From positions 55,217 through 119,216 of IMG/VR virus record IMGVR_UViG_3300047274_000273: DNA of 64,000 nt; one strand, 5' to 3'. Positions 32,412 through 60,788 of this stretch are shown in pieces. The position numbers and the translations under genes are program-made. The notes under the pieces were generated by a model. It was not told the DNA's origin, did no database searches, and saw only the letters and a program-made list of their open reading frames with translations. Source of the stretch: a virus (lineage: Duplodnaviria > Heunggongvirae > Uroviricota > Caudoviricetes). The first letter of the stretch is position 1, and every line of letters starts with the position of its first letter.

Positions 32412-32412
32412 T

Positions 32413-38164: not shown

Positions 38165-38167
38165 GAA

Positions 38168-38190
38168 AAACCCACCATTGGTGGGTTTTT
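38168..38190 (+). terminator. rho-independent terminator
   Basis: aaacccacc-att-ggtgggttt followed by tt. Confidence 0.8.
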
Positions 38191-38216
38191 AAATTATCTA
38201 TTAAAGAGAGAATAAA

Positions 38217-38630
38217 ATGTTAGAGTGTTTGATCTTAGGTGATAGTCTTGCAGTGGGCATAGGACAGATCCGCAAAGAATGTACGACCTATGCCGTCAGT
38301 GGTATCAGTAGCTATAACTATGTTAATAGACATATCTTATACACTGGTTCTAATAACAAAGAAGCCAAGACAGTGATAATCAGCTTAGGATCAAACGATC
38401 TCAAGAACATCAATACCTACGAAGAATTAGACACTTTGAGACAACTAGTCAAAGCAGATCGAGTTTATTGGATCTTGCCTGCTATCAAAGAAAATAAACG
38501 GGAAGCAGTCCAAAAAATTTCTCAAAAATACAATGATGTTGTCATTGACGCAAGACAGCATTCTATGAGTCCTGATGGGGTACATCCTACCTACAAAGGC
38601 TACAAAGAAATTTCTGCCAAAACCAAATAA
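38217..38630 (+). CDS. SGNH/GDSL-family hydrolase
   Basis: ILGDSLAVG (GDS block), GSND, DGVHP (DxxH block). Confidence 0.55.
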   Translation: MLECLILGDSLAVGIGQIRKECTTYAVSGISSYNYVNRHILYTGSNNKEAKTVIISLGSNDLKNINTYEELDTLRQLVKADRVYWILPAIKENKREAVQKISQKYNDVVIDARQHSMSPDGVHPTYKGYKEISAKTK

Positions 38631-38650
38631 ACTATAAAGTGCAGTAATAT

Positions 38651-38854
38651 ATGCAAGAATCATCACTACGCAGTCTGGCCAAAACACTTAGTTGGCGGGT
38701 CACAGGTAGTGCTTCTACATTCATTATCGTTTATCTTGTCACGGGTAGTGCAGGTGTAAGTTCGGGAGTGGCTGTTATACAGATGATCGTCAATACTTTC
38801 TTGTATTGGTTTCACGAACGAGTATGGAATCGTATCAAGTGGGGCAAAGACTAA
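38651..38854 (+). CDS. small membrane protein (DUF2061-like)
   Basis: Two TM spans. Confidence 0.35.
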   Translation: MQESSLRSLAKTLSWRVTGSASTFIIVYLVTGSAGVSSGVAVIQMIVNTFLYWFHERVWNRIKWGKD

Positions 38855-39711
38855 TTTTTGAGAAATAGTTTTTTTTCTACGATTTCTTTAAGAGGTATTC
38901 CGTGTAGTTTCGATTTTGTGTAACAGTCAGCATAGGGATCATAATCGATCCATGTGCCTAGACCTAAGACAATATGGATTCTATCTTCTGGAAATTCGCA
39001 GCGCCTGTTAACAGTGACCTTATGCGGAATCCTAGTATTCCAGATATAAGCCTTCCCTAATTCAAGATGTTTTCTTATAGATAATTCGTTTCCGTATTCA
39101 TCGCGACCATCGATTTCTATTATATATTCTCGAGATGTCTGCAATGGAATATTGATCCTCAGTAAGTGTGTAGGCGGCTCGTCTACGTGAGGATCACTGT
39201 CGTTACGAGATTTTCCGAACATATTTAAAAAAGCCACTCGACTGCGAAATATAGGCATACTCAATTTTGAAAATAAACTACCAAACGATCGTTCTATTAT
39301 GGGATCGATTTTTCTAAATGCAAATGTATCATAATAGGTATTTCTAATCTTATCATGCTCGCCCATGCCCGCAGACCTTCCATAGTTCTGGAGCAAATTA
39401 CCAGAACCCCAGGTCTGATGAAATTTAGAAGAGCCAGTATCTTTATAGTCAGGATTATAGGTGAGAGAAAATCCCGAATATTTTCTGCTCTTACCAAATT
39501 TAGTAGTCCATGGCTGTAGTCCTATTTGATTCTTAACAGCCATAGTTGACTCTAGTAGCTCGGTATGGCTAGGCAAGCCTAGCTCTCTCAAATCGAACTC
39601 ATAAAATAAAAAGTTCTGCAATGAATCCGAAATCATCTGCTCGGAGTAAAAACCGGCACTGGTTAGGTGTGCGATAATTTCTTTAGAATCATCGAGATCG
39701 GATATGTTCAT
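38851..39711 (-). CDS. hypothetical protein, possible 2OG-Fe(II) oxygenase / cupin-type HxD...H fold
   Basis: PHVDEPP...IPHKV, a possible facial-triad arrangement. Weak call. Confidence 0.3.
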   Translation of the reverse strand: MNISDLDDSKEIIAHLTSAGFYSEQMISDSLQNFLFYEFDLRELGLPSHTELLESTMAVKNQIGLQPWTTKFGKSRKYSGFSLTYNPDYKDTGSSKFHQTWGSGNLLQNYGRSAGMGEHDKIRNTYYDTFAFRKIDPIIERSFGSLFSKLSMPIFRSRVAFLNMFGKSRNDSDPHVDEPPTHLLRINIPLQTSREYIIEIDGRDEYGNELSIRKHLELGKAYIWNTRIPHKVTVNRRCEFPEDRIHIVLGLGTWIDYDPYADCYTKSKLHGIPLKEIVEKKLFLKN

Positions 39712-39843
39712 TAGTGTATTTATGGGCCGTATTCATTAGTCATCTTTAATGATTTAACGTATGTTTTTTCCGGTGATTTTACCGTATTATAATGATACAT
39801 ACTGATGCAATAGAAGTATGTTTTTATAAAAAGGAGACACATT

Positions 39844-39915
39844 ATGTGGACCAAACCTGAAGCAACCGAAATGCGTTTTGGCTTTGAAGTAACAATGTAC
39901 GTAGCTAATCGCTAA
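39844..39915 (+). CDS. pqqA: PqqA-like peptide (coenzyme PQQ precursor peptide, 23 aa)
   Basis: [23 protein letters not shown] versus Klebsiella PqqA [23 protein letters not shown]: same length, and the conserved MW.KP, G.EVT.Y..NR residues are kept, including the Glu and Tyr that become PQQ. Strong SD aaggag; terminator directly downstream. Confidence 0.6.
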
Positions 39916-39924
39916 TCCAAAAGA

Positions 39925-39945
39925 GCCCACTTCGGTGGGCTTTTT
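39925..39945 (+). terminator. rho-independent terminator
   Basis: gcccac-ttcg-gtgggc followed by ttttt. Confidence 0.8.
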
Positions 39946-40005
39946 CTTGACTTTTTTTCCTACCGGTGTTATAATAATATCAACAGTAACGACTGGAGAA
40001 CAATT

Positions 40006-40401
40006 TTGAGTATGCATTTGGAAGGCCCGTGGCTCAGCACCACAGGCAAAAAGAAAGGCAAACGCAAATTTCGAAACGCTGATGAAGCGAGAAAGGCTAG
40101 ACAGTTGAAAGAAGAATGGGAAGATCTTCTCAAACGTCACGGTATTGAGCAAGAACAGCGCCGTAAGAATCGAGCTCTAGCTGTCCCTACTTATACGCCA
40201 ATTAAGGCCGAACCTTATAGGCGAGATACAGGTCCAAGGATTCCTAGTTTGAATCCCACCGATATGGCTCCTTGCCTTAAGACTCCAGACAAGGTCTATA
40301 CAGGAACTGCTATCAAAGGTATTGGTACTATGCATAAATCTAACGCTGTACCTATCTTTTCGGACGAAGAAGCGATAGATATCGCCAAAATGCGTCGATA
40401 A
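40006..40401 (+). CDS. hypothetical basic protein
   Basis: ORF only; Lys/Arg-rich N-terminus. Confidence 0.35.
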   Translation: MSMHLEGPWLSTTGKKKGKRKFRNADEARKARQLKEEWEDLLKRHGIEQEQRRKNRALAVPTYTPIKAEPYRRDTGPRIPSLNPTDMAPCLKTPDKVYTGTAIKGIGTMHKSNAVPIFSDEEAIDIAKMRR

Positions 40402-40667
40402 TCACCGGTTTACAACTAGAATATTTGATGTTATGCTATATATAACTACGTTTCGCAAAGAAACTGAGATAGTAGAACCGAAGTATGTCAAAAGCTGAAA
40501 AGGTTCCGCGAGTCTTGGCCTATGAGAAACCCGTGAGATTCGGGCGGTCAAGGCTCCAAAGGCACATGAGTTATGAGATCATGCGTCCAATGGAGACAAC
40601 TACACGAACCCAGGGTTCTTTCAAGAGCCTCGTGAAGTTTACTCCCTTAATGTAATGTCGTGAAGTA

Positions 40668-41252
40668 TTGCGACACCAAGTGAAAGGAGGACTTATGGAA
40701 AAGTCAATTCGTTTTATCTGTTGCCTTCTCGGCTTTTTGGCCGTGGTAACTGTTATCCAATCTTTGGTTAACAAAAAGTTTGAAAATCTCAAACAAGTCA
40801 ATGGCTACTATAGCCAAGATGTAATTTCTATCAAAACCCGTGAAACTCAACTAGACTGTCTGGCCATGAATATCTATCGTGAAGCCGGATATGAAAATTT
40901 TGAGGGCAAGGTCGCAGTCGCACAAGTGACTATGAATCGTGTCAAGGACGGTAGGTTTGGAGAAGATGTCTGTGGAGTGATCTACAAGAAAAATGTCGTG
41001 ATGGACAAGGTCGTTTGCCAATTCTCATGGGCTTGCGATCATGCAGCCAGAACTAGACCTGTGAATCCCACAGCCTACAAAGAAAGTTACGAAGTAGCTA
41101 AGAAAGTTCTTTTGGAAGGTTTCCAATTGAGTGTTCTCAAAGATGCATTATACTATCATGCAAACTATGTGAACCCTCGTTGGCCCTTAGAAAAGATTGG
41201 ATCAATCGGTAATCACATTTTCTACAGAGGAAAGAAAGGCAACAATGTTTAA
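40668..41252 (+). CDS. SleB-type cell-wall hydrolase (endolysin candidate) with N-terminal signal-anchor
   Basis: LDCLAMNIYREAGYE...GKVAVAQVTMNRV...VCQFSWACD: the Hydrolase_2/SleB signature. SD aaaggagg. Confidence 0.65.
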   Translation: MRHQVKGGLMEKSIRFICCLLGFLAVVTVIQSLVNKKFENLKQVNGYYSQDVISIKTRETQLDCLAMNIYREAGYENFEGKVAVAQVTMNRVKDGRFGEDVCGVIYKKNVVMDKVVCQFSWACDHAARTRPVNPTAYKESYEVAKKVLLEGFQLSVLKDALYYHANYVNPRWPLEKIGSIGNHIFYRGKKGNNV

Positions 41253-46805: not shown

Positions 46806-48695
46806 ATGTCTAAGATCATCGGTATTGACCTCGGCACCACCAACTCATGCGTGGCTATCGTCGAGAACGGAACTTCCAAAGTTATTGAAAATTCAGAAGG
46901 TGCAAGAACTACACCTAGTATCGTTGCCTATGCTAATGATGAAATCCTCGTAGGCGCATCAGCCAAGCGTCAAGCAGTAACTAATCCTAAAAATACAATC
47001 TATGCGGCCAAGCGACTAATTGGTCGTAAGTTCAAAGAACAGGCTGTACAAAAAGATATCGATCTCATGCCATATGAAATCATGGAAGCCAAGAATGGCG
47101 ATGCATGGGTTAGAGCACAGGGCAAAGAACTAGCCCCTCCACAGATTTCCGCAGAAGTCCTTCGCAAGATGAAGAAGACCGCAGAAGATTATCTTGGTAC
47201 TACAGTTACTCAAGCAGTCATTACTGTTCCTGCGTACTTTAATGATCAACAACGTCAGGCGACCAAAGATGCAGGACAGATCGCAGGATTAGAAGTACTG
47301 CGTATCATCAACGAGCCAACCGCGGCCGCTCTAGCTTACGGTGTTGATAAGGAATCAAAAGGCGATCGCAAGATCGCAGTCTATGACCTAGGTGGTGGTA
47401 CATTTGACGTTTCGATTATTGAAATCGCGAATGTTGATGGTGATAAGCAAATCGAAGTATTGTCTACAAACGGTGACACTTTCCTGGGCGGTGAAGACTT
47501 TGACCAACGTATCATGGACTACTTGGTCGACGAATTCCGTAAAGAGCAGGGAGTGGATCTAACCAAGGACATGTTAGCTTTACAACGACTCAAAGATGCT
47601 GCTGAAAAAGCTAAGATTGAATTATCTAGCAGCACACAAACAGAAGTTAATCTTCCATATATCACAGCAGATGCCAACGGTCCTAAGCACTTAGTAGTCA
47701 AGTTGTCCAAAGCTAAACTAGAAAGCCTAGTTGACGATCTAATCCAACGCTCATTAGAGCCTTGCCGCATCGCTATGAAAGATGCAGGTGTTACTGCCGC
47801 TGACATCGACGAAGTTATTCTTGTTGGCGGTCAGACACGTATGCCTAAGGTACAAGAAGAAGTTGAGAAGTTATTTGGTAAAGCACCACGTAAAGATGTG
47901 AATCCAGACGAAGCAGTGGCTGCGGGCGCTGCTATCCAAGGTGCTGTTCTTGGCGGTGACCGCAATGATGTTCTATTACTAGATGTTACACCATTGAGCC
48001 TAGGTATTGAAACACTGGGCGGTGTAATGGCTAAGATCATCCAGAAGAATACAACTATTCCTACTAAGGGACAACAAACATTTTCTACAGCAGAAGATAA
48101 TCAACCTGCGGTAACTATCAAGGTTTTCCAGGGTGAACGTGAACTCTGTCAGCACAATAAGCTCTTGGGCGAATTTAATCTAGAAGGCATCGCTCCGGCA
48201 CGTCGCGGCCAGCCTCAGATCGAGGTTGCTTTTGATATCGATGCCAATGGTATCATGAATATCAGTGCCAAGGACAAGAGCACAGGTAAAGAAAATAAGA
48301 TCACTATCAAGAGCGACAGCGGTCTGAGCAAAGAACAGATCGAGCAGATGATTCGCGATGCTGAAGCTAATGCAGAAGCAGATAAGAAATCCAGAGAGCT
48401 TATTGAAGCTAAAAATCAAGCAGAGTCTACAGTTCACGAAGTGAAGCGTGATATGGAAGAACTCAAGGATGATCTCAGTGATGCCGAAAAGGCTGAAATT
48501 GAATCTGCGATCGCAGCCGTTCAAGAAGCAGCCAAGACAGACGACACAGACAAGATCAAATCCGAGCTTGAAAAAGTTTATCCGGCAATGAAAACATTGT
48601 TGGAAAAAAAGCAGGCCAAAGAGCAATCACAGGCTCAACCTGCTGGTACAGATGATAATGTAGTCGATGCTACCTTTACGGAGAAAAAAGACTAA
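46806..48695 (+). CDS. dnaK: chaperone DnaK (Hsp70)
   Basis: [21 protein letters not shown], full-length 629 aa with C-terminal lid. Confidence 0.95.
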
Positions 48696-48701: not shown

Positions 48702-48750
48702 TGTTTAGGGGTACCTACGGGGCCCTAATTGTTCTTACTTTATAAGGAGA
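48702..48750 (+). promoter_or_regulatory. conserved heat-shock-type promoter/leader cassette upstream of hsp20
   Basis: TGTTTA-N14-GCCCTAAT-N4-CTTACTTTATAAGGAGA. Confidence 0.45.
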
Positions 48751-48755
48751 CTATT

Positions 48756-49190
48756 ATGAACAATCAACTCGCAAGACTAGATGCTCTGAACAGAGCTCTT
48801 ATTGGTTTCGACACCATGTTCGACCAAATGGAACGCCGTTTCGCTAACAGCGTTAATAATAACTATCCCCCACACAACATCCTACGTTTGGCTGACAATG
48901 AATATGCCATTCAACTGGCTGTCACGGGCTTTGATAAAAGCGAAATTTCAGTGACTATTGAAAACAACGTTCTAGTTGTCAAGGGTGAAAGCATGACCAC
49001 TGATTATGCTGCTGAACAATATCTACACCGTGGACTAGCTACCCGAGACTTTGTCAAGGAATTTTCTCTTGCAGAGCACATCGAAGTAGCAGGCGCAGAA
49101 ACTAAGAACGGTATGCTAACCATTAAGTTGATTAGAAACATTCCAGAATCTGCCAAACCGCGTGTCGTTGATATCGTAGAGGTTAAGTAA
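48756..49190 (+). CDS. small heat-shock protein (Hsp20/IbpA family)
   Basis: Alpha-crystallin domain (YAIQLAVTGFDKSEISV...LLVVKGE). Start moved to 48756 to sit behind the SD. Confidence 0.8.
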   Translation: MNNQLARLDALNRALIGFDTMFDQMERRFANSVNNNYPPHNILRLADNEYAIQLAVTGFDKSEISVTIENNVLVVKGESMTTDYAAEQYLHRGLATRDFVKEFSLAEHIEVAGAETKNGMLTIKLIRNIPESAKPRVVDIVEVK

Positions 49191-49194: not shown

Positions 49195-49216
49195 ATATGG
49201 GGGCAAAGCCCCCATA
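49195..49216 (+). terminator. GC-rich hairpin between hsp20 and clpS (possible attenuator or weak terminator)
   Basis: atgggggc-aaa-gcccccat, but with a poor U-tract. Confidence 0.35.
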
Positions 49217-49233
49217 TCATCGAAGGAGAACTT

Positions 49234-49536
49234 ATGAGCACTGAAATCCAATTTGATGAAAAGGTAAAGGTTGGTCTTCAACCGCCTAAGATGTGGAAGG
49301 TCATTTTTCTTAATGACGATCACACTCCCATGGAATTTGTCATGGAATTGCTAACTTCTATTTTCAGACACAGTGAAGAAGAAGCTAGGACGATAACTCT
49401 AGAAATCCACAATTCGGGCAGCGCAGTTGTTGGAGTTTATACTCACGAGATTGCTGAGCAGCGAGGTCTTGAATCTACACAATTAGCTAGAAGTAATGGA
49501 TTTCCGTTGAGAATCACTCTTGAACAAGAGCAATGA
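49234..49536 (+). CDS. clpS: ATP-dependent Clp protease adaptor ClpS
   Basis: PKMWKVIFLNDDHTPMEFVMELL...AEQ aligns with ClpS (P.MYKV.L.NDD.TPM.FV). Confidence 0.85.
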   Translation: MSTEIQFDEKVKVGLQPPKMWKVIFLNDDHTPMEFVMELLTSIFRHSEEEARTITLEIHNSGSAVVGVYTHEIAEQRGLESTQLARSNGFPLRITLEQEQ

Positions 49537-49793
49537 CCTTTGACGATGTAAAACTTATTAAACATCAAAGCACAGGCGCAAGAAAATTTGGTTACTGGGT
49601 TCATTTTAGAGACCAACGCCCGCATCATCTATCTGTGGGTGTAGCCGGAAAAAAATCAATCAGAAAATTTTTAGAGACAAGCCTTGGTCCTATGGGACAA
49701 AAATGGCAGTATGAAAAGTTCAATCAATTTGATTATTTTATCAAATTAGACAACGAAAAAGATCTCTTATTTCTCATCCTCAAGTTTAAGTGA
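49533..49793 (+). CDS. hypothetical protein
   Basis: ATGA overlap with the upstream gene. Confidence 0.35.
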   Translation: MTFDDVKLIKHQSTGARKFGYWVHFRDQRPHHLSVGVAGKKSIRKFLETSLGPMGQKWQYEKFNQFDYFIKLDNEKDLLFLILKFK

Positions 49794-49809: not shown

Positions 49810-50367
49810 ATGAATCTAAAAGAACTCACTCACGAACAACACAGAAGGGCCGAAACTCGTCCTTTTGTCAAGGTACTATTTTCAGGTAATGTAAATCCTA
49901 AGATTTATGCGACCTATCTAAAAAATCAGCATCCTATGTACGAAATCTTAGAAGTCTGTGCCATGCCGCATGGACTACTAAATGGACTATCCGAAATACG
50001 CAGAGCACCGGCGATACTCGAGGATTTCTCCGAACTATGGGGAGATTCAGATGAAAAGCCATATATGTGTCCTGTAGTAGATGATTATATCAAATACATT
50101 CTCGGTATCAAGGATAACCCAGAAAAATTAATGGCACATATCTATGTTCGTCATATGGGAGATCTCAGCGGCGGACAGATGATAGCTAAACGTGTTCCCG
50201 GTACCGGTAAGTATTATCAATTCGGCGATTCTCCGGAAAAGATCAAAGAAGCTATCAGATCAAAACTAGATGATAGTATGGCTGAAGAAGCCAAAGTCTG
50301 CTTTGATTTTGCCGCTAGATTTTTCGACGAAATGATGGAAGTGGTAAAATTATATGACACAGAGTAA
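49810..50367 (+). CDS. heme oxygenase
   Basis: LKELTHEQHRRAETRPFVK...NPKIYATYL: the heme-oxygenase N-terminal proximal helix with conserved His. Confidence 0.7.
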   Translation: MNLKELTHEQHRRAETRPFVKVLFSGNVNPKIYATYLKNQHPMYEILEVCAMPHGLLNGLSEIRRAPAILEDFSELWGDSDEKPYMCPVVDDYIKYILGIKDNPEKLMAHIYVRHMGDLSGGQMIAKRVPGTGKYYQFGDSPEKIKEAIRSKLDDSMAEEAKVCFDFAARFFDEMMEVVKLYDTE

Positions 50368-51040
50368 GGTCTGGGATACACTGATAGAAATACAAACTCT
50401 ATTAGAAGATTCTTTTAACCGCACAGGTAAAGAAGTATTCGAGCCAGGAATGGATCGTTTCAATCAGCCGGGTTGGGTAAATCGTGTCTGGACCAGTGAC
50501 AGTTATCGTAGAGCTCATATCGATGTAGTCGATGCCCGATCCACAAAGGGCCTTTGGATGATGCACTGCTGTATCTTCCCACATATCCATAACCCGGCAC
50601 CCATATTTGGTTTTGATGTTATCGCAGGTAAGAACAAAATCACAGGTTGTTTTCATGATTTTAGTCCCGCAGGTGATAGCGAGCATCACCTAATCGATTG
50701 GTTCGCAGATGAAGCCAGTAGATTAGAGTGGAATAAAACCCGTAAACTTCCCGAGTGGGCGGAGCGTATTTTTACAGGTAGTATGATAGCTGCCGGTAAT
50801 GTACAAGATGAAGCTGAACTAGAACAGCTCACAGATCTTGTAAAATTAACCACTAAAGTCTATCTACAGCACGTGGGCGATACGAATCATACTGCAAAGA
50901 ATACTACCTTTAATCAAAATTTCTACGCCCAAAATCAAAAAATGAATCCTCATACTCCTAAAGTAATGGCTAGCCTAGGCCTGAACGAAGAGGATGTACA
51001 GGTGTTTATACAGGATTGTCTGTTCCCAGAGATCCGATAA
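50354..51040 (+). CDS. ferredoxin-dependent bilin reductase (PcyA/PebS/PcyX family)
   Basis: FDBR family layout with central GFDVIAG and conserved His/Asp positions (HIDVVDA, HDFSPAGD). Overlaps the ho gene by 14 nt. Confidence 0.7.
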   Translation: MTQSKVWDTLIEIQTLLEDSFNRTGKEVFEPGMDRFNQPGWVNRVWTSDSYRRAHIDVVDARSTKGLWMMHCCIFPHIHNPAPIFGFDVIAGKNKITGCFHDFSPAGDSEHHLIDWFADEASRLEWNKTRKLPEWAERIFTGSMIAAGNVQDEAELEQLTDLVKLTTKVYLQHVGDTNHTAKNTTFNQNFYAQNQKMNPHTPKVMASLGLNEEDVQVFIQDCLFPEIR

Positions 51041-51050: not shown

Positions 51051-52427
51051 ATGAGATTTTTTGAATTTAATCTACACGAGTCATCTAGAGGAATCCTATT
51101 TCGTACAGTAGGAGATCCCTTTAAATCCACTGCGGACCCTAATAAAACACTGACCTATGCAGGATCGCAGACATTTCCCGCCCCAGTTCCGGGCCAAGGT
51201 GCAGCTCAATTTCCCGATCCTGAAACATTTAATCAAGAAGTCGCTGCTGCTGAAAAAAAGTTTCCGGGGATCACATGGACTAATAAATCAAATGCTTCGA
51301 TGCGAGCATTTGCTGTGGTTACCTTAGACGATCCTGTCGCAAAGAAGAAGGTACATTTTGGTAGATTTTTCAAAGAAATATCACCGGACATGGCAGGTAA
51401 ATGGAAAAATGACGGTATACCCGGATATAGTCTAGAAATTAAATCTTCAAAGAAATCTAGATCGGGTCTTAAGCCCAACGATCTAATTCCATTAGGGCAG
51501 CAATTTCCAAACCCACAGGCACTTATAGAAGCTCTAAAACCAGATTTAGATCCTGCTATCAAAGCAGGATTGACAATGATAGTTGAAAAGAAACTACCAG
51601 TGTTTAATGTTGATGCTAGCATGGAAGCAGCTATTAGAGATGACCTAGGGGAAATAATCGCTCCCATGGCACTATGGCAAGGCATGATATCTGCAGAAGC
51701 AGAGTCAGCTAGAAAGTTTTTGTTGAAAACAACACCATGGAGTGCCTGTGCTATAACATTTTCATCAACTAAGAATGCAGGCTTGATTGATAGCTATGTT
51801 AAACCTCCAAAAGGCGTAGCTGTTGGTATTTCTAGTAAGGGTGCAGAAGGAGCTAAGGCATCTGCATCGAACATATGGGCAGGTGTTGAATTGCTACGTT
51901 CTACAGGACAACAAGATGTTGTCGATCAATACCCAGAAGCTGTTCATGTATTAGAAATGATCAAGCGAGAATCTCAATACCGAGGACCTATGGTACTAGG
52001 TACAGAATATGGTTTTCTTACTGGTCAAGACGAAACATTGATCAACCAGGCAATCAAGCAGGGAATGCAAAAACTACCTCCAGGACCAGAATGGGAAAAC
52101 ATAGGTGCATTAATGAAAAAATTTGCTCCTAGAGACATGTCTAAATCTAACTATAACATAGGGTATCATGCTCTTGCCGGATTGGCAAAAATGGTACAAG
52201 AAAAAGTCAACAGTAGTGTTCCAAAGTTTAGTGAAGCGTGTATAACATTCCTAAATAGTTCTCCATTATTACAGATACATCTGTATACCAAAGCATCCGG
52301 TAATACTGTTTCAGTAACCGGTTTCAAAACAATATGGCCTCCACAGTTCAAAGGATCCGTATCTCTCAATGCCGGCAAGAGTTATTATGCTACCGGTGTC
52401 ATAAACAAGTTCGCGTTTAGTTGGTAG
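51051..52427 (+). CDS. hypothetical protein with MRFFEF N-terminus
   Basis: Start chosen at ATGAGATTTTTTGAATTT, identical to the start of the ORF at 21901. Confidence 0.4.
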   Translation: MRFFEFNLHESSRGILFRTVGDPFKSTADPNKTLTYAGSQTFPAPVPGQGAAQFPDPETFNQEVAAAEKKFPGITWTNKSNASMRAFAVVTLDDPVAKKKVHFGRFFKEISPDMAGKWKNDGIPGYSLEIKSSKKSRSGLKPNDLIPLGQQFPNPQALIEALKPDLDPAIKAGLTMIVEKKLPVFNVDASMEAAIRDDLGEIIAPMALWQGMISAEAESARKFLLKTTPWSACAITFSSTKNAGLIDSYVKPPKGVAVGISSKGAEGAKASASNIWAGVELLRSTGQQDVVDQYPEAVHVLEMIKRESQYRGPMVLGTEYGFLTGQDETLINQAIKQGMQKLPPGPEWENIGALMKKFAPRDMSKSNYNIGYHALAGLAKMVQEKVNSSVPKFSEACITFLNSSPLLQIHLYTKASGNTVSVTGFKTIWPPQFKGSVSLNAGKSYYATGVINKFAFSW

Positions 52428-52497: not shown

Positions 52498-52953
52498 ATG
52501 AAAAAATTGATAGCTGTGGCCATGGTTGCCTCTATGGCCGTTTCTGCACACGGAGCAGAAATAGTACATCAGTTCAATAGCCCTTCTTTTTCTGGAATAG
52601 GCTTCTCTAGTCATACGTTGACAATCTATTCCCAGGAACTAAGTAGAAAATTAGCTATTGCCGCTGAAAAAAAGGCAGAAGAGTTAAAAGCAGAGCAAGA
52701 TGCTAAAAATACCACACAGGCCAAGTTTATTGCGAACTTAGAAAGTAGGGTATACAACGAACTTGCACGTCAAATCACAGAAAAACTGTTCGAAGGAACA
52801 GGCACACAAGTCACTGGAACCTTCGCGTTCAACGGTGGCACCATTCGTTATACAAAAACAGGTAACGAAATAACCATAACAATAACAGGTGCAGACGGAA
52901 GTGTAACTACCATGACTGTGCCAGTAGGAGACTTCGGATGGCTAGCACCTTAA
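52498..52953 (+). CDS. csgF: CsgF-like curli assembly protein
   Basis: Signal peptide; mature N-terminus IVHQFNSPSFSG versus E. coli CsgF TMTFQFRNPNFGG; similar length. Confidence 0.55.
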   Translation: MKKLIAVAMVASMAVSAHGAEIVHQFNSPSFSGIGFSSHTLTIYSQELSRKLAIAAEKKAEELKAEQDAKNTTQAKFIANLESRVYNELARQITEKLFEGTGTQVTGTFAFNGGTIRYTKTGNEITITITGADGSVTTMTVPVGDFGWLAP

Positions 52954-54149
52954 TGAAACTTACACCGATAGCACTGGCTATCACACTAACTGGCTGTGGA
53001 ACAATAGGCAATGCTGTCCGATCATTTGACGAGCCTACTGTAACTAAACCTACACTAAAAGTAGAATCAACCTTAAAAGAACCGGCTGCTGGGGCTATCG
53101 CCATAGCTGTCTACAACTTCCGTGATATGACTGGCCAGCGTAAGGCCAGCCAAAACATTGCCAGCCTTAGTTCGGCTGTAACACAAGGTGCAGATGCTTA
53201 CCTTGTTAAGAGCCTACAAGAAGTAGGTGGCGGTCGTTGGTTCAAAGTATTAGAAAGAGGTGGATTAGATAATCTGGTCAAAGAACGTCAGCTTATCCGT
53301 CAAATGCGCGAACTGTATCAAGGTAAAGATGCACAGCCTTTACCTCCTATGCTGTTCGCTGGAATCATATTAGAAGGCGGTATTATCGGCTATGATTCTA
53401 ACACAATGAGCGGCGGATCCGGTGCTAGATTCCTAGGCATTGGCGCTTCTACAGAATATCGACAGGACGAAGTTACTATCAGCCTACGAGCAGTTTCAGT
53501 AGCCACTGGAGAAGTTCTAGTGACTGTGAACACAAACAAAAAAGTCTACAGTTTTCAAGACAAGCTAGGAGTTTTGCGTTTTGTAGATGCCGGAACACAA
53601 GCACTGGAGTTAGAAACAGGTTCTGCTACTAACGAATCTATGAACAAAGCGGTACAATTAGCCATACATGCTGCGGTCATAGAACTTATTAACTCTGGAG
53701 CAGGAAAAGGTCATTGGGCATTTAAATCCGATGTTGCTGCGGCACCTCAGCCAAGACCAGAACCTGTGGTTGTAAAAGAGGAGGAGGTAAAGAAAGATGA
53801 GTTGGTTCAAAAGGACTCCGCACCTAAAGAAGAAAAAATTGAAGCACCTGCGACACCCGCAGTACCACAACCCGATGACAGAAAAACTGTTACAGAAGAG
53901 CCAGCAAGAACAGAATCAAAAAACACAGACACAAACACAGTAATAACCGTGCAGCCTAAAGTTACTTTAGGAAATGTCACAGATTGGGTAAACGTAAGAA
54001 AAGAACGCGATATAAACAGCGAAAAGTTAGCCAATCTTAGGCCTGGAACGCAAGTAGAAGTACTTGATACTAAAGGCGATCACTACGTTGTTAGAGTCAA
54101 CGGAAAGGAAGGTTATGTAGTAAGAAAATTTATTAAGGTACAAAAATAA
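52938..54149 (+). CDS. csgG: CsgG-like curli secretion channel lipoprotein with C-terminal SH3b domain
   Basis: Lipobox LTGCG. IAVYNFRDMTGQ, LERGGLDNLVKERQLIR, GGIIGYDSNTMSGGSGARFLGIGAS and ISLRAVSVATGEVL align with E. coli CsgG. C-terminal VNVRKERD...GTQVEVL...YVVR is SH3_3-like. Confidence 0.8.
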   Translation: MASTLMKLTPIALAITLTGCGTIGNAVRSFDEPTVTKPTLKVESTLKEPAAGAIAIAVYNFRDMTGQRKASQNIASLSSAVTQGADAYLVKSLQEVGGGRWFKVLERGGLDNLVKERQLIRQMRELYQGKDAQPLPPMLFAGIILEGGIIGYDSNTMSGGSGARFLGIGASTEYRQDEVTISLRAVSVATGEVLVTVNTNKKVYSFQDKLGVLRFVDAGTQALELETGSATNESMNKAVQLAIHAAVIELINSGAGKGHWAFKSDVAAAPQPRPEPVVVKEEEVKKDELVQKDSAPKEEKIEAPATPAVPQPDDRKTVTEEPARTESKNTDTNTVITVQPKVTLGNVTDWVNVRKERDINSEKLANLRPGTQVEVLDTKGDHYVVRVNGKEGYVVRKFIKVQK

Positions 54150-54176
54150 CAATAACAGTACCACGGAGCGAAGAAA

Positions 54177-54860
54177 ATGATCAAAAATAATTATAAAATG
54201 GCTTTCATTATGGCGGCCATATTTGCCGGTTCAGGATCAGTTCAGGCAAACAACGGAGTCTATATTGAACAAGTAGGTTCCACAAACACAGTTACTATCA
54301 CTCAAATAGGCGCTAATAATAGAGTGGGTAACAGCGGTTTAAATCAACAGAGTAAAATTACAGGCAGCAACAACACATTGACTGCTAGCCAAACAGGCGA
54401 CGGAAATATCATAGACTACACAGTAATAGGCAGCGGCAACACTATTACTAAAACTGTAGCAGGAGATACCAATCAAATCACCTTTATCTGCGGCGATGGA
54501 ACAACCAGCTGTAGTAATGTGACCAGCACCATGACACTCACTGGTAATCAAAATACTGTTACTAGTACGATCAAAGGTTCTTCGATCACTAACATGTTGT
54601 CTATCACCGGTGACAGCAATACTGTAACACAGACTATCACTACCAACAATAGCACTAGTTCTATTACTATCCTAGGCGACAGTAATACCTTTACTAGTTC
54701 GATGACTGGTGCCAGCGCAGGCGCAGGACATCATTTGCTGGCGTCTGTTACAGGTACCAGCAATACCCATACTATTACACAGAGCGGTACCGTGAATACC
54801 ACGGTTAATGTTACCACCAATGGTAACAGCAATAATGTAACTGTAAGTACTGGAAACTAA
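54177..54860 (+). CDS. curlin-repeat protein (CsgA/CsgB-like amyloid subunit candidate)
   Basis: Signal peptide, then repeats of T-x-T-Q-x-G-x-x-N type (VTITQIGANN, LTASQTGDGN, HTITQSGTVN). Confidence 0.55.
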   Translation: MIKNNYKMAFIMAAIFAGSGSVQANNGVYIEQVGSTNTVTITQIGANNRVGNSGLNQQSKITGSNNTLTASQTGDGNIIDYTVIGSGNTITKTVAGDTNQITFICGDGTTSCSNVTSTMTLTGNQNTVTSTIKGSSITNMLSITGDSNTVTQTITTNNSTSSITILGDSNTFTSSMTGASAGAGHHLLASVTGTSNTHTITQSGTVNTTVNVTTNGNSNNVTVSTGN

Positions 54861-55939
54861 TGAAATATGCATGGCTACTATTGACCGTATTTGCCCTGGA
54901 CGCTAATGCCGCAATTGGCACGATGAGCGAAGTCCAGGGCACAGCCATTGAAATCAAAAGAAACAAATCTGCCATCGTAGGCAAAACAAATTCAGAAGTA
55001 GAATCTATGGATGCAGTAACCGTAGGTTCAAAATCACAGGTCGGAATTATTTTCAAAGATAGTACCAAAGTAAAGATCACAGAAAATTCTAGACTGGTCA
55101 TAGACGATTTCGTCTTCGACCCTAAGAAATCAGATGCTGGTAAACTAGGCATGAAAGTGGCTCTAGGCACCGTACGTTACGCATCTGGGCAGGTAGCTAA
55201 AAATAATCCTCAAAATGTAAACATAAAAACCCCTACAGCTTCTATCGCTGTACGTGGAACAGACTTTGCCATGACTGTAGATGAAGTTGGACGTAGTCTT
55301 GTTGTATTGTTACCTAGCTGCGATGATCCCACCAAACTAAACAACTACCAGATACAAGGTAACTGCGTGGTAGGGGCTATCGATGTTATTACAGATGCAG
55401 GTCTAGTCAGCCTCAATCAAGCCTATACAGCGACTTATGTAACTGATGCACAACAGCCTCCACTGCCCCCAGTAAAGGTCGATCCTGTGGCTGTTAGCAA
55501 TGACAGCAATCTTAAAAAACCGGAAAACATCGCTCGGGCAGAAACTGATAGAGAAGAGAAGAAAGACGCAGCAAGAGATAAATCAAAGTTCGGTGATGAC
55601 GAACGTAAAAAGGCCGGCGAATCTAATGAAAGATCTCTGTCGGAAAAGAAAGCTCAAGAAGAAGAAGGTACGAAACTCATAGGATTGAATGGTAATAATA
55701 ATGGTGCATTAGGTAATCCTGCATCTAATCCCTGTTGGCCTTTCAATGACTGTGGTAATGAAAAAGGACTGAACTGGTACTATCGCAAAGATGACGATCG
55801 CGGCAATACTATCTTTATTAGGTCCGGAGAAAAGTTCGATAATACTACCTATAATATTTCTATCAACAGCAACGACATAGAAACTCGCGTCAACGGAGAT
55901 GGCAGTAATAAAGTTACAGTAAGGATATGGAACAAATGA
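54860..55939 (+). CDS. secreted FecR-domain protein
   Basis: Signal peptide; IAVRGTDFAMTV FecR-like core. Confidence 0.45.
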   Translation: MKYAWLLLTVFALDANAAIGTMSEVQGTAIEIKRNKSAIVGKTNSEVESMDAVTVGSKSQVGIIFKDSTKVKITENSRLVIDDFVFDPKKSDAGKLGMKVALGTVRYASGQVAKNNPQNVNIKTPTASIAVRGTDFAMTVDEVGRSLVVLLPSCDDPTKLNNYQIQGNCVVGAIDVITDAGLVSLNQAYTATYVTDAQQPPLPPVKVDPVAVSNDSNLKKPENIARAETDREEKKDAARDKSKFGDDERKKAGESNERSLSEKKAQEEEGTKLIGLNGNNNGALGNPASNPCWPFNDCGNEKGLNWYYRKDDDRGNTIFIRSGEKFDNTTYNISINSNDIETRVNGDGSNKVTVRIWNK

Positions 55940-57858
55940 GAAATCTGTTGATTTTTTTGTTCGGTGTTATGTCTGTATTGAATTCTGCGATAGCTAATGC
56001 TAACTACGGATTTGAAGGCGGCCTAGGAGCTGAATGGCAGATCGGAGGTACTACCGGCACACAATCTGCAACTGCCTGGAATGATACAGGAGTTGGTGTA
56101 AGTATAGTTACTGGTGTTACAAACTACAGTCCTGGCGGTGGTAATACTTGGAACATAACTCCCTATGGTACTAAAATGGCCAGTATACAAGGCGGTGGTT
56201 TAGCCTTTGATCAGATCACTTCGGGACTAGGGCTGTCGGGAGTAGAGAACACTGCGATCAAAAATATGTTGACCTATCAGTCACAGAATGGTGGCGGTGG
56301 CAATCCAACACCTACCACAGGTTCCTATATGAAACGGGAAGTCACACTGCAAGCAGGTCAGACCTATACCATGGCCTGGCAGTATCTTTCCACAGACTAT
56401 ACTCCGTTCAATGATGGTTCTATCATGACTTTGGTTCATAGCAGTGACGGAAACATTACTCCTACACTAAACAATAAACAACAGAGATATTCTTTACTAG
56501 GTTTTACCAATCCCGGAACGGGTAACTATGCCACAGGCAGCTACGGTGCCACAGGTTGGCAGGTAGCTACATTTACTGTGCCGGTGTCGGGCACATATGT
56601 TCTAGGTTTTACATCATTTAACCTAGGTGATACAGCATTGAGTCCTATCCTACTAGTTGACGAAGTACAGGGAACAACTACACTAAACGGACAGACATTT
56701 ACTCCAGTTAATCCTAATCCGGGATCAGATGCACCTCCACCTCCTACACCGTCTGTGCCCACAGCCGTGTATAACTCGGGCATCAGTCAAAATGTTTGGA
56801 TAACTAATCACTATCCTACATCAAATAATTCACCTGCAGGAGAAGGTGCTGCTAATGCCTTTGACAATAATCCCGATACCAAATATTTGAACTTTGATAA
56901 GAAGAATGCAGGTGTTACGGTCAAACTAAACGTTGGTAAAGTCATAACAGGATTTACATTGACCACTGCCAACGACTTTCCGGGACGAGATCCAACCAGT
57001 TACAAACTATATGCGTCTAACGACGGCGTCACTTGGACACTGATCAGTGAAGGTAGTCTTTCATTGACTGACAGTAGAAAAACAACCAGCAGTATGATCT
57101 CAGTGACCAATACCAACCCTTATGTCTACTACTACATTTTCTTTCCTACAACCAAAGCAGGTGAGGGTTGCGGATTAAACTGTGACAGTATGCAGATCGC
57201 TGAAATCACTTTTTATTACGAATCTGGTAATACAGCAACTTCAACTGCCACAGGATCGGGATCGGTGTCAAACCCTAGTGATCTTTGTTGCGGCGGAGTT
57301 AGCACTCCATTCAATGCTAACACAGGATTCGCTACTAGAGCAGGAGTATTTTCTGCCGCAGGAGACAGCCGTGTTATCATAGAACAGATAGGTAACTATA
57401 ACACAGCTAACATTACACAGTCAGGCAGCAAAAACTATCTCGAAGCTAATTTCACAGGCAACAATAACTCATTGACTGCTAATCAAACTACTGCTAACTC
57501 GTCTACAAACTACACAGAGTTAAACGTTACAGGAAACAGTAATACTCTTAACATCACACAGAATAATACAGGTGGTTCCAAAGGCATAATGGCTACTGTG
57601 GATAATTCTTCTAACTCTGTAACTGTTAATCAATCTGGTACGGGCAATCATTATTCAGAAATAAACCTCACTGGTGGTAACAAGACCGTGAATGTAACAC
57701 AGAGTGGATCAGCAGCACACATGGCCAAGATTGAACTCAGCGGTGGTGCTACATCGATCACTACCACACAGACTGGTGCTACACAGCAGCACTATTCAAT
57801 CACTCATAACTGCGCTCAAGCTAGTTGTGCAGCAATCACTGTAACACAAGGGCAATAA
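55927..57858 (+). CDS. large secreted protein: F5/8-type-C (discoidin) domain fused to C-terminal curlin repeats
   Basis: Signal peptide; AFDNNPDTKYLNF...YKLYASNDGVTWTLI discoidin-like segment; C-terminal approximately 200 aa of ITQSGSKN / VNQSGTGN / VTQSGSAA repeats. Confidence 0.55.
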   Translation: MEQMRNLLIFLFGVMSVLNSAIANANYGFEGGLGAEWQIGGTTGTQSATAWNDTGVGVSIVTGVTNYSPGGGNTWNITPYGTKMASIQGGGLAFDQITSGLGLSGVENTAIKNMLTYQSQNGGGGNPTPTTGSYMKREVTLQAGQTYTMAWQYLSTDYTPFNDGSIMTLVHSSDGNITPTLNNKQQRYSLLGFTNPGTGNYATGSYGATGWQVATFTVPVSGTYVLGFTSFNLGDTALSPILLVDEVQGTTTLNGQTFTPVNPNPGSDAPPPPTPSVPTAVYNSGISQNVWITNHYPTSNNSPAGEGAANAFDNNPDTKYLNFDKKNAGVTVKLNVGKVITGFTLTTANDFPGRDPTSYKLYASNDGVTWTLISEGSLSLTDSRKTTSSMISVTNTNPYVYYYIFFPTTKAGEGCGLNCDSMQIAEITFYYESGNTATSTATGSGSVSNPSDLCCGGVSTPFNANTGFATRAGVFSAAGDSRVIIEQIGNYNTANITQSGSKNYLEANFTGNNNSLTANQTTANSSTNYTELNVTGNSNTLNITQNNTGGSKGIMATVDNSSNSVTVNQSGTGNHYSEINLTGGNKTVNVTQSGSAAHMAKIELSGGATSITTTQTGATQQHYSITHNCAQASCAAITVTQGQ

Positions 57859-57974
57859 TCCTCTAACTAAATAGCTGTGTTTTTTTAAGGACAAGCTATG
57901 ATTTTAGAAATAATGATGTGGGGATTTTTCTCTGCGTGGGGCTGGTTTGGTGCTAGTTATATCAAAGATAAAGT

Positions 57975-58283
57975 TTGGCCCGAAACTCCCCCGGCACAGT
58001 CACAGCCCGAAACGCAACACAGAAAAGACAGCTGATGTTAACATATCTTATAACTTTTATTGCGATTTTTGTAACAGATATAATTTATGTTTGTTTTGTA
58101 AATTCTATACAACAAAATCAACCAATGACTGCTAGCTTCTGGTCGGCGTTCGTTACCTTCACCGCCAGTATCGCAGTGATTAATTATACCCAGGATAACT
58201 GGGCATTGATACCTGCGTTACTGGGCGCATTCTGCGGAACCTATGCAGGCATGCTTATAAAGGATAGGATTAAAACTAAATAG
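57975..58283 (+). CDS. small membrane protein
   Basis: Three hydrophobic spans. Confidence 0.35.
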   Translation: MARNSPGTVTARNATQKRQLMLTYLITFIAIFVTDIIYVCFVNSIQQNQPMTASFWSAFVTFTASIAVINYTQDNWALIPALLGAFCGTYAGMLIKDRIKTK

Positions 58284-58301
58284 TGTTTTAAGGAGTGAGC
58301 C

Positions 58302-58598
58302 ATGCGTTTTTTAACCGTGGCGTTCCTATTCTGCCTATCCGGCACCGTAGCCAACGCCCAGCCATTTGAGAGCCGTAAACCTGTGCTCTGCGATGATACC
58401 AAAACTCTAATCAAGAGCCTTACGGAAAACTATAACGAAAAACCCATTTGGACAGCTCGCAATCCCGTAGACCATACAAGATTTGGGTTATTCGTTAATT
58501 CTAAAACCGGATCTTGGACACTTTTACAAATGACTCCGGACATAGCCTGTATTCTCGGCGTTGGCGAAGAATCTAGTTCGATTGGCGATTCGACCTAA
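58302..58598 (+). CDS. small secreted protein
   Basis: Signal peptide MRFLTVAFLFCLSGTVANA. Confidence 0.4.
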   Translation: MRFLTVAFLFCLSGTVANAQPFESRKPVLCDDTKTLIKSLTENYNEKPIWTARNPVDHTRFGLFVNSKTGSWTLLQMTPDIACILGVGEESSSIGDST

Positions 58599-58733
58599 AA
58601 AGAAATTTCTTATGTAGGTGTAGTCTTGTCTTGTTGTATTGAACAGCAATAACGACTAATGCATCTAATCAAGGTAGTGTTTTTGCTACCAATAGTGCCA
58701 TACCTGCCCACTATGCATTTAGTTAAATATAAA

Positions 58734-60788
58734 ATGATGAAAAAAATACTTTTAAGTCCTTGGACTGCCTTGATCACATTAGTACTTGTTACAAGTATAA
58801 GAATAGCCGATCCTGTACTTGTAGAAAGTATAAGATTACGTTATTTCGACACGCTGATCACTAGTAAAGCACCTACAGAAAATAACATCGTTACTGTAAA
58901 CATAGATGAGTCGGCCTTAGAGAAATACGGCCAGTGGCCATTTAAGCGAGACATTTATGCCGATCTAATCGAAGATCTTTATAAAAGAAAAGCAGGTCTA
59001 GTAGTTTTCAACGTGCTGATGACCGAACCAGATCGACAAGGTGGTGACGGAGCTCTAGCAGCCACACTTAATGAGTTTCCTGTGGTGTTGCCTAACATGC
59101 CCGCAGATCGAAATAAAAATATGCCTCGACAACCAGGTACGGCTGTGATAGGTGCAGACTTCCAGGATATGATAGTGCAGTATCCCGGTATCATAGCTAA
59201 TGTTCCGGATTTAGAAAGCAGAGCAGTAGGAGTAGGTACGGTCAACACACTACCAGAAGTAGATGGAGTTAATCGTCGCATGCCACTGATAGTGTCTGTC
59301 GACGGCAAAGTATATCCTAGCCTATCTATGGAGATACTAAGAGTGGCATCTGGGGATACTACTACACAGATCAAACTGTTTGAAGGTGGTGTTGAAAAGA
59401 TGCGTATACCTGCCTACGGTCCTGTGTCTACAGATCCTCTAGGCCGTGTGTGGATTGATTGGAGCCAGAAGAGTCGCTCAGTGTCTATGACAGATCTTCC
59501 TAAAGACTTAAATGGTGCTGTAGTTATCGTAGGAGTAGCCGCAGCCGGTCTAGGTAATCCTGTGCCCACAGCAGTCGGCAGCATATGGCCGCACGAAGCA
59601 CAGGCTGCGGTAGTTGGAACGATGTTCAACAATGTCACTATTCAACGCCCTGATTATGCCGACGGTGCTGAAATCTTAACACTGGCTCTAGCAGGTATAT
59701 TATTGATATTTTTAACGAGGTATGTATATGCAGGTTTGGCAACGACGATTATTCTTATCTCTGGCACTGCTGTTGGCAGTTGGATTGTGTTCGATCTCTA
59801 TCTATGGTTATTTGACGCTACTGCCCCTGGAGTTGGCCTACTCATGGTCGCTCTGCATGCCTATGGCGTCAAGTTTGTAAGTGAGTTCTTACAGAAGCAG
59901 GCAATCAAGAAACAGTTCGCTGGCTACTGCTCACCTGAAGTTGTTAGACTTCTACAAGAAAATCCAGACTTAATCAAGAAAGGTGTTAAGAAAGATGTGT
60001 CAGTTATGTTCAGTGACCTGCGTGGATTTACTCCTATCGGTGAACACTTTGACAAGCCAGGCAATGGCGGGCCTGAAGGTCTGGCCAAGTATATGAACGG
60101 ATATATGGATGCTATTACTATTCCTATCATTGATGCCAACGGTATGGTGCTCAAGTATGTAGGTGATGCATCAATGCACATACATGGTGCTCCTTTAGAA
60201 GATCCTAACCATGCACATACTATTGTAAGGGTAGGACTAGAGATGTTAGATCGAGTAGACGCTTATACAAAAGAAATGGAAGCAAAAGGTCTACCACCTG
60301 CCGCAATGGGGTGGGGTTGCAATACAGGAGACGGATATATCGGTGAGATGGGATCAACTGCAAGACACGGCTACGACATCCTAGGTGATATGGTTTCAAC
60401 TGCGGCTCGTCTAGAAGCACGTTGTAAGGCCTACGGTGTGTTGTGTATCATTGGTGCTGAAACTTATAAGCGTACCAAGGATGATTTCTTTTATTTGCTA
60501 CTAGACAACCTACAACCAAAAGGTAAGAGTGTAGCAGATCTGATCTATACTGTGTTGCGCACTCATGGTGAAGATTATACAAAAGATCGAGAACAACATG
60601 ATAGGATGCATGCCTTGTACAAGGCCAAGAAGTTTGACGAAGCAGCCGCTATGTGCGAAAAACTAAAGGGTAACTTCGGTGGACAAATGGACAAGTACTA
60701 CGATATCTGGATTGACCGTTGTAGTTTTATGAAACAGCAAGATCTAGGCGATAATTGGAATGGCGAATTTATCGCCCACGAAAAATGA
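58734..60788 (+). CDS. CHASE2-sensor membrane class III adenylate/guanylate cyclase
   Basis: CHASE2 segment (IVTVNIDESALEKYGQWPFKRDIYADLIEDL...VVFNVLMTEPD), TM cluster, then CYCc domain (VSVMFSDLRGFTP, KYVGDASM, MVSTAARLE). Confidence 0.7.
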   Translation: MMKKILLSPWTALITLVLVTSIRIADPVLVESIRLRYFDTLITSKAPTENNIVTVNIDESALEKYGQWPFKRDIYADLIEDLYKRKAGLVVFNVLMTEPDRQGGDGALAATLNEFPVVLPNMPADRNKNMPRQPGTAVIGADFQDMIVQYPGIIANVPDLESRAVGVGTVNTLPEVDGVNRRMPLIVSVDGKVYPSLSMEILRVASGDTTTQIKLFEGGVEKMRIPAYGPVSTDPLGRVWIDWSQKSRSVSMTDLPKDLNGAVVIVGVAAAGLGNPVPTAVGSIWPHEAQAAVVGTMFNNVTIQRPDYADGAEILTLALAGILLIFLTRYVYAGLATTIILISGTAVGSWIVFDLYLWLFDATAPGVGLLMVALHAYGVKFVSEFLQKQAIKKQFAGYCSPEVVRLLQENPDLIKKGVKKDVSVMFSDLRGFTPIGEHFDKPGNGGPEGLAKYMNGYMDAITIPIIDANGMVLKYVGDASMHIHGAPLEDPNHAHTIVRVGLEMLDRVDAYTKEMEAKGLPPAAMGWGCNTGDGYIGEMGSTARHGYDILGDMVSTAARLEARCKAYGVLCIIGAETYKRTKDDFFYLLLDNLQPKGKSVADLIYTVLRTHGEDYTKDREQHDRMHALYKAKKFDEAAAMCEKLKGNFGGQMDKYYDIWIDRCSFMKQQDLGDNWNGEFIAHEK

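Follow-up and report, generated by a model that had tools for sequence, protein, structure and literature searches.

An overlapping heme oxygenase and PcyX-like bilin reductase gene pair in a large T4-like phage genome related to freshwater lake phages

Heme oxygenase (HO) cleaves the ring of protoheme, which yields biliverdin IX-alpha, Fe2+ and CO, and a ferredoxin-dependent bilin reductase (FDBR) converts biliverdin to a phytobilin with four electrons from ferredoxin. Phages can carry both genes, and the early work on the marine phage pairs is reportedly that of Ledermann et al. in 2016 and 2018. The introduction of a later survey credits earlier work with the finding of hemO-pcyX in uncultured marine phages and of phycoerythrobilin (PEB) synthesis by PcyX (Wegner et al., 2024; PMC11480375). 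The survey itself reported that marine and lake phages carry a viral 5-aminolevulinate (ALA) synthase with hemO and pcyA or pcyX, in three-gene, 'broken' or stand-alone form; it also showed that the enzymes of the phage CB_2 are active, and found it 'still enigmatic' what the catabolic genes are for (PMC11480375). Adjacent ho1 and pcyX-like genes, plus an ALA synthase, have also been described in large freshwater phages (Chen et al., 2020). We analysed the corresponding genes in a 64,000-nucleotide stretch of a Caudoviricetes genome (positions 55,217 to 119,216 of IMG/VR record IMGVR_UViG_3300047274_000273), hereafter the window. The best explanation overall, which we hold to be likely, is a phage auxiliary metabolic cassette, hemO-pcyX, of a T4-like lake lineage, with PEB as its predicted product and iron salvage as its tentative role; product and role taken singly are graded lower, as argued below.

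The cassette comprises three features:
49810..50367, + strand: heme oxygenase (vHemO), compact, 185 aa, ATG start, Pfam PF01126
50354..51040, + strand: PcyX-like FDBR, 228 aa, ATG start, predicted phycoerythrobilin synthase, Pfam PF05996
50354..50367, + strand: 14-nt overlap of the oxygenase stop and the reductase start, read from the sequence

The oxygenase matched Heme_oxygenase (PF01126) with E=2.7e-22 and 80 bits, against a cut-off of 23, and the reductase matched Fe_bilin_red (PF05996) with E=2.7e-14 and 53.8 bits, against a cut-off of 31. We are close to certain that the genes encode a heme oxygenase and a PcyX-like FDBR. A first-pass annotation of the same DNA had proposed this pair of enzymes and their overlap; the two open reading frames (ORFs) lie exactly where it placed them, and both pass the Pfam cut-offs. 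The ATG of the FDBR gene, at 50354, sits within the final codons of the oxygenase gene, an overlap of stop and start that probably couples translation of the two proteins 1:1. An identical FDBR protein with the same neighbouring genes was seen again in independent assemblies, and the ORF pair is a real feature, well beyond chance.

In IMG/VR, 375 contigs, some of them 190-280 kb long, carry relatives of this FDBR. Counts of loci given below refer to the 80 best matches of the 375, which represent 79 distinct loci and are 72-84% identical to the window protein. The oxygenase gene lay directly upstream of the reductase gene, on the same strand and overlapping it, in 79/79 loci; the overlap ranged from 4 to 62 nt and was mostly 8, 11 or 14 nt. 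Each enzyme is intact, retains the catalytic residues of its family and is strongly conserved, and the two genes are arranged for coupled expression.

The sequence places the reductase with PcyX, and not with PcyA, PebA, PebB, PebS or HY2. Its top sequence match in the PDB was PcyX_EBK42635 (5OWG), at E=2.1e-66 and over the full length, while PcyA entries scored at about 1e-11 and PebS, PebA, PebB and HY2 gave no PDB sequence match at E<=1. An AlphaFold (AF2) model of the protein likewise had 5OWG as its top Foldseek match, followed by PcyA, PebB, PebA, HY2, RCCR and PebS; all matches at E<=0.001 were FDBRs or RCCR, apart from two chains of PcyA-containing complexes, so that the model has the alpha/beta/alpha sandwich fold of the FDBRs. 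The protein did not qualify as PcyA: it scored 83.5 bits against the NCBIfam PcyA equivalog NF002760, far short of the cut-off of 206, and has an Asp at the position of Glu76 of PcyA. The family assignment made in the first-pass annotation thus stood, while the choice that it had left between PcyA, PebS and PcyX was narrowed to PcyX-like by the 5OWG match, the missed equivalog cut-off, the fold and the phylogeny.

That phylogeny, which the first-pass annotation had named as a check, was built by neighbour joining (NJ) with 500 bootstraps on 151 core columns, with distances capped, and used the FDBR reference set of Supplementary Dataset 6 of Wegner et al. 2024 (PMC11480375). The window FDBR grouped with the IMG/VR contigs at 99%, then with GROS21-1_SAMEA9560794, a lake-derived uncultivated viral genome (UViG), and the actinobacterial single-cell genome (SAG) AAA041-L13 at 74%; all members of this clade bear Asp at the diagnostic position. 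The lake Asp clade was nested in the phage PcyX-like group (80% bootstrap), apart from PcyA, PebA, PebB and PebS, and that group joined the Glu-bearing Bradyrhizobium and CB_2 sequences in an 'AX clade' (92%). Cyanobacterial and cyanophage PcyA formed a clade of their own (93%), PcyA plus AX separated from the Peb enzymes at 98%, and PebS, PebA and PebB fell outside the PcyA plus AX clade. Core identity to the window FDBR followed a similar order, being 74.5% for GROS21-1_SAMEA9560794, 69.8% for SAG AAA041-L13, 49.7% for the Pelagibacter phage Mosig, 47.0% for the characterised PcyX, 35.1% for CB_2, 34.5% for Bradyrhizobium, 23-28% for PcyA and 14-18% for the Peb enzymes.

Catalysis by PcyA involves Glu76, His88 and Asp105 (Synechocystis numbering), of which Glu76 is needed if the 18-vinyl group is to be reduced; in PcyX an Asp replaces Glu76, and the product is PEB and not phycocyanobilin (PCB) (PMC13446030; PMC10151467). 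Residues D57, H71 and D88 of the window FDBR correspond to Asp55, His69 and Asp86 of PcyX and are invariant in 80/80 sequences (the window protein and 79 relatives). The first-pass annotation had made its claim depend on retention of the catalytic Asp and His residues, and all three are present; the Peb enzymes have Asn where the window FDBR has His71. Because the window FDBR has Asp in place of the Glu by which PcyA directs 18-vinyl reduction, PEB is the predicted product, which we consider reasonably likely.

Several points weigh against this assignment. The window FDBR shares just 47-50% identity with the marine PcyX that has been characterised and with the Mosig enzyme, the NJ nodes between that PcyX and the lake Asp clade have 4-24% bootstrap, with N, S and V variants interleaved, and the structure model is only moderately confident (predicted local distance difference test score, pLDDT, 76; predicted template modelling score, pTM, 0.78). 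Moreover, the freshwater phage enzyme of CB_2 was first annotated as PcyX-like and proved to make PCB (PMC11480375). The window FDBR could by analogy be functionally a PcyA, making PCB like the CB_2 enzyme and the PcyA of Bradyrhizobium ORS278, and could supply a phytochrome-type chromophore; that its nearest published relatives are also lake-derived fits such a reading, as do the low bootstrap values. The diagnostic residue speaks otherwise, since CB_2, Bradyrhizobium and every aligned PcyA have Glu where the window FDBR has Asp (D57), and the CB_2 enzyme that makes PCB is itself Glu-bearing (PMC11480375). In addition, core identity is about 35% to CB_2 and 34.5% to Bradyrhizobium as against 47-50% to PcyX and Mosig, both former sequences lie outside the phage PcyX-like group, and the PcyA equivalog cut-off is missed; PCB as the product is therefore unlikely. 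Another FDBR product, for instance through a halt at the two-electron intermediate 15,16-dihydrobiliverdin or through formation of phytochromobilin, as in some pre-PcyA enzymes, is very unlikely. The regiospecificity and electron count of FDBRs have switched repeatedly in evolution (PMC13446030), and other branches of the phage superclade have, at position 57, variously N, S, V, C, K and E, which implies functional diversification; yet the three residues of the four-electron PcyX are all present and invariant in the window clade, while pre-PcyA lineages are without the His or the acidic residue (PMC13446030; PMC10151467).

In the wider phage PcyX-like group (representative proteins P0122-P0188 and the GROS21-1 lake UViGs), position 57 is D, N, S, V, C, K, Q or E, and the His and the second Asp are fixed. 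Several phage FDBR lineages may make different bilins, because position 57 varies.

The oxygenase matched HO-2, HO-1 and HmuO in the PDB at E=3e-15 to 1e-9. Its His11 aligned with the proximal heme-ligand His of HO-2 and is kept in 79/80 relatives, and in the distal-helix motif G117-D118-L-S-G121-G122-Q123 residues G117, D118, G121, G122 and Q123 are invariant among relatives. With the HO of GROS21-1_SAMEA9560794, the lake UViG that is also the source of the closest published reductase, it shares 68% identity, and with the HO of Mosig, which it resembles in its compact length (185 aa), 43.5%. Related phage enzymes, marine PhiHemO and CB_2 vHemO, have been reported active by others (PMC11480375).

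The oxygenases found beside the FDBR clade form two lineages (43 versus 37 sequences), with about 66% identity within and 40% between them. The reductases beside these two lineages show no matching split (77% identity between, 77-80% within), which suggests that the oxygenase gene has been replaced beside a fixed reductase. The second HO type is 57% like the HO of the acI SAG AAA041-L13 and 54% like that of GROS21-1_623.

A third gene of tetrapyrrole metabolism lies elsewhere in the window:
3278..4465, - strand: 5-aminolevulinate synthase, phage vAlaS group (TIGR01821, 577.5 bits against a cut-off of 338.55)

This score confirms the ALA synthase proposed in the first-pass annotation, and its link to the hemO-FDBR pair is upheld. 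The gene is 45 kb from the pair and on the opposite strand, so that the three genes are not contiguous, and the arrangement fits the 'broken cassette' category of Wegner et al. 2024. Over the N-terminal 49 aa, the part that was compared in the alignment of Wegner et al., vAlaS is about 80% identical to the vAlaS of GROS21-1 lake phages, which indicates that the window is another genome of the lineage sampled there. The combination of hemO-pcyX with a separate valaS is accordingly already published for marine and lake phages, and the window adds a further genome of a sampled lineage.

The closest described systems differ from the window to various degrees. The GROS21-1 UViGs from Lake Grosse Fuchskuhle have the same three genes, with hemO and the FDBR gene adjacent and valaS elsewhere (PMC11480375), but the window is a different genome, with its valaS 45 kb off on the opposite strand. 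Marine PcyX_EBK42635 with PhiHemO, the best match among solved structures, likewise has its HO gene upstream and overlapping; its reductase is 47% identical to that of the window, and the G+C content of the window is about 42%, as against 33-38% in the marine contigs that Wegner et al. list (PMC11480375). The nearest cultured phage is Pelagibacter phage Mosig EXVC030M, a T4-like Kyanoviridae phage of a heterotroph, with the same gene order, the same 14-nt overlap and identities of 48.7% (FDBR) and 43.5% (HO). Its pair is flanked by 2-oxoglutarate-Fe(II) (2OG-Fe(II)) oxygenases or ferrochelatase and neck genes, whereas the window pair lies between ClpS and a curli block. The vHemO and vPcyA of the CB_2 peat-bog phage and the PcyA of Bradyrhizobium ORS278 ('PcyA*') belong to the same AX clade and are linked to HO and ALA synthase in non-cyanobacterial hosts; they differ in the diagnostic Glu, in PCB as product and in an identity of about 35%. 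The cyanophage ho1 gene with pebS or pcyA embodies the same concept, a phage-encoded heme-to-bilin pathway, but cyanophage PebS is 16-18% identical to the window FDBR and has Asn for His, identity to cyanophage PcyA, which bears Glu, is 22-29%, and the HO lineage is different (PMC10151467).

The genes flanking the cassette are the following:
46806..48695, + strand: DnaK, identified from its translation
48729..49190, + strand: Hsp20, Pfam HSP20
49234..49536, + strand: ClpS, Pfam ClpS
49533..49793, + strand: 86-aa ORF, function not assigned
51051..52427, + strand: 458-aa ORF without a family match, starting 10 nt past the reductase stop; public gene callers also give 458 aa

DnaK, Hsp20 and ClpS stand upstream of the pair, as the first-pass annotation had said of an adjacent chaperone cluster, and the linkage is shared by most relatives, with ClpS and Hsp20 in 75/79 loci and DnaK in 73/79. 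From ClpS to the reductase the successive gene spacings are -4, +16 and -14 nt, and this tight spacing suggests that hemO-pcyX is co-transcribed with ClpS. Terminator-like sites were enriched in the window overall, and none was found on the + strand from ClpS to the end of the 458-aa ORF. Promoter scans were uninformative: sigma-70 sites numbered 15 against 16.3 expected, and the T4-late motif TATAAATA occurred at 2 sites against 4.1 expected, none of them near hemO-pcyX. The 86-aa ORF recurs in just 5/79 loci and a homologue of the 458-aa ORF in just 15/79, which ruled both out as conserved bilin partners; Pfam, PHROG and NCBIfam searches with the 458-aa ORF gave no match.

Some further features of this neighbourhood were seen. 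Between Hsp20 and ClpS, at 49195..49217, lies a GC-rich palindromic hairpin with a perfect 10-bp stem, ATATGGGGGC-AAA-GCCCCCATAT, which may be a terminator or processing site that divides the chaperone genes from ClpS-hemO-pcyX. A ClpP fragment lies at 16..345 and, with DnaK-Hsp20-ClpS, gives the phage an unusually full proteostasis set near the heme genes. The gene directly 3' of the FDBR gene is hypervariable across loci, with at least 5 unrelated BLAST clusters of 400-560 aa and no family match. Nearly all versions of it begin MR[AFI]FEF (MRFFEF in the window, 51051..52427), a shared start that resembles the capsid-targeting leaders of the polymorphic T4 internal proteins.

As to what the cassette does, the oxygenase would convert heme to biliverdin IX-alpha, freeing Fe2+ and CO, and the PcyX-like reductase would carry biliverdin via 15,16-dihydrobiliverdin to PEB with four electrons from host ferredoxin, while the separate phage ALA synthase would supply the front end of the tetrapyrrole pathway. 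The reductase could in this way serve as a biliverdin sink that keeps the oxygenase turning over, and the infected cell would thereby turn over heme and salvage its iron. We tentatively prefer this role to the supply of a light-harvesting pigment. It is favoured because the window has no ferredoxin, phytochrome, GAF, globin or lyase and no gene of unassigned function stays with the pair: among about 97 window ORFs scanned, no phytochrome (PHY), GAF, PAS, globin, CpeS/T, lyase or ferredoxin domain was found, and a search of the 101 window ORFs for ferredoxin cysteine motifs gave nothing. An iron and redox context is present in the window, with a class I ribonucleotide reductase small subunit, a fatty-acid desaturase, AhpC, CMD, glutaredoxin and GST domains; the first two belong to di-iron families. 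It counts against iron salvage that it leaves unexplained why it is a four-electron reductase that is so strictly conserved, and not any biliverdin sink. In addition, the window covers 64 kb and the whole genome is probably much larger, so that an acceptor or a ferredoxin might be encoded outside it.

That a four-electron reductase is so strictly conserved points to a specific product being of importance, as would be the case if the bilin were the chromophore of a host or phage photoreceptor or of a bilin-binding globin (BBAG), with light sensing in the infected cell. HemO and PcyA of CB_2 assemble a functional phytochrome in vitro (PMC11480375), and clusters of FDBR, HO and BBAG genes occur in heterotrophic proteobacteria (PMC13446030; PMC10151467). 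Nevertheless, the window lacks PHY, GAF, PAS and globin domains, and neither ORF of unassigned function stays with the pair across the loci. Phytochromes that carry PEB are, furthermore, photochemically locked, and we regard a chromophore role as rather unlikely. The linkage to chaperone genes at 73-75 of the 79 loci, in a genome that also has a ClpP fragment and a transfer-messenger RNA (tmRNA), would fit a cassette that is not a pigment pathway but the end of a conserved module for proteolysis and heme salvage (DnaK, Hsp20, ClpS, HemO and PcyX). Host haemoproteins would be tagged and degraded, their heme opened for iron and the biliverdin cleared by PcyX, and the recovered iron would serve the di-iron enzymes of the phage; we think such a module quite unlikely. 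Highly improbable is a cyanobacterial host in which the cassette keeps the phycobilisome supplied with pigment, as proposed for cyanophage ho1 with pebS or pcyA. The best cultured matches of the virion structural protein are indeed Synechococcus phages (S-RIM32, 50%), and the G+C content of about 42% is close to what many Synechococcus myophages have. Cyanobacteria, too, can have permuted tmRNAs (PMC9004378). Against such a host stand a tmRNA of the beta type with a tag ending known elsewhere from Gammaproteobacteria (see below), the lack of any photosystem, hli, cpeT or other photosynthesis gene among the ORFs scanned, and the presence of curli CsgF/CsgG and ribosomal protein S21, as in pelagimyophages and methylophages. 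Cyanophage PcyA is, moreover, just 22-29% identical to the window FDBR, and among cultured phages it is one of Pelagibacter that matches both genes most closely.

What heme-to-bilin genes do for phages whose hosts are without phycobilisomes is a real question, stated as such by those who discovered the genes (PMC11480375), and the first-pass annotation was right to treat product and role as open. The window does not itself raise that question, but adds a well-defined member of the Asp-bearing lake clade. What comparison contributes is the clade-wide overlap of stop and start, the linkage to DnaK-Hsp20-ClpS, and the two HO lineages exchanged beside an unchanging reductase. The lake clade is a sensible target for bilin assays, because its lake neighbour CB_2 makes PCB while the active site here predicts PEB.

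The window is 95% coding, with 87/101 ORFs on one strand. Its virion structural protein matched phrog_1645 (E=8.5e-108), and the cultured relatives are T4-like marine myoviruses (cyanophage and pelagiphage). Ribonucleotide reductase, GMP reductase, a curli CsgF/CsgG block, ribosomal protein S21 and a permuted tmRNA are also encoded, and comparable gene content has been described for pelagimyophages (PMC7029224) and the OM43 methylophage Melnitz (PMC9004378). On this sequence, the genome is that of a large T4-like (Kyanoviridae-like) phage, and the closest published relatives of the lineage come from freshwater lakes. When 50,697 phage records, a collection outside which the GROS21-1 UViGs lie, were searched by megablast with the 12 kb that surround the pair, there was no match, so that there is no cultured close relative. 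The FDBR was not found in 185,579 species-representative cellular genomes by a method that detects close relatives only, which argues against a cellular origin.

Two RNA genes were annotated:
36528..36898: permuted two-piece tmRNA, tag ANAANDEVYALAA (Rfam beta_tmRNA, 134 bits; also RF04321)
34102..34177: tRNA with anticodon CTA, an amber suppressor (ARAGORN tRNA-Pyl; Rfam tRNA, 59 bits)

The tmRNA scored as the beta-proteobacterial type, not the alpha or cyano type. Permuted tmRNAs are known in Alphaproteobacteria, the former Betaproteobacteria and Cyanobacteria (PMC9004378). The ending of its tag, NDEVYALAA*, was found only in Gammaproteobacteria (n=18; Lysobacterales and Thiotrichaceae) among the 185,579 species genomes. 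These 18 were considered as donors and rejected, since the 10 loci scanned all carry standard one-piece tmRNAs; the tag says just 'proteobacterial-type'. The first-pass annotation had argued for a host other than a cyanobacterium from the permuted tmRNA, a rhodobacterial-type ALA synthase and a SleB lysin. Its conclusion is probably right, and a phage that does not infect a cyanobacterium is the more likely case, but these reasons do not carry it: permuted tmRNAs occur in cyanobacteria too (PMC9004378), the ALA synthase fits the published phage vAlaS group and is no rhodobacterial marker, and a SleB-type hydrolase is not diagnostic of a host.

The closest non-viral record of the FDBR clade, SAG AAA041-L13, comes from Lake Damariscotta and represents an acI-A7 actinobacterium; its GC content is 44.2%, that of the window about 42%, and acI has been reported to be a heme auxotroph (bioRxiv 10.1101/2021.01.11.426183). 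If acI is the host, the phage ALA synthase and heme oxygenase would manipulate a scarce imported cofactor.

TAG ends 11/101 window ORFs, and there is no sign of recoding within the window. The region 1..41249 of the window encodes a redox and lipid set (AhpC/TSA, CMD (AhpD-like), glutaredoxin, GST N-terminal and fatty-acid desaturase), as well as PAAR, SleB-type Hydrolase_2, DUF454, a PfkB kinase and a class II aldolase. Downstream of the cassette, the block at 52498..60788 encodes CsgF, CsgG fused to an SH3 domain, curlin-repeat, FecR-domain and F5/8 type C domain proteins, and a CHASE2-adenylate/guanylate cyclase. No mention of the FecR and CHASE2-cyclase companions was found in PMC7029224 and PMC9004378, and a partial curli system is itself known from pelagimyophages (PMC7029224) and Melnitz (PMC9004378).

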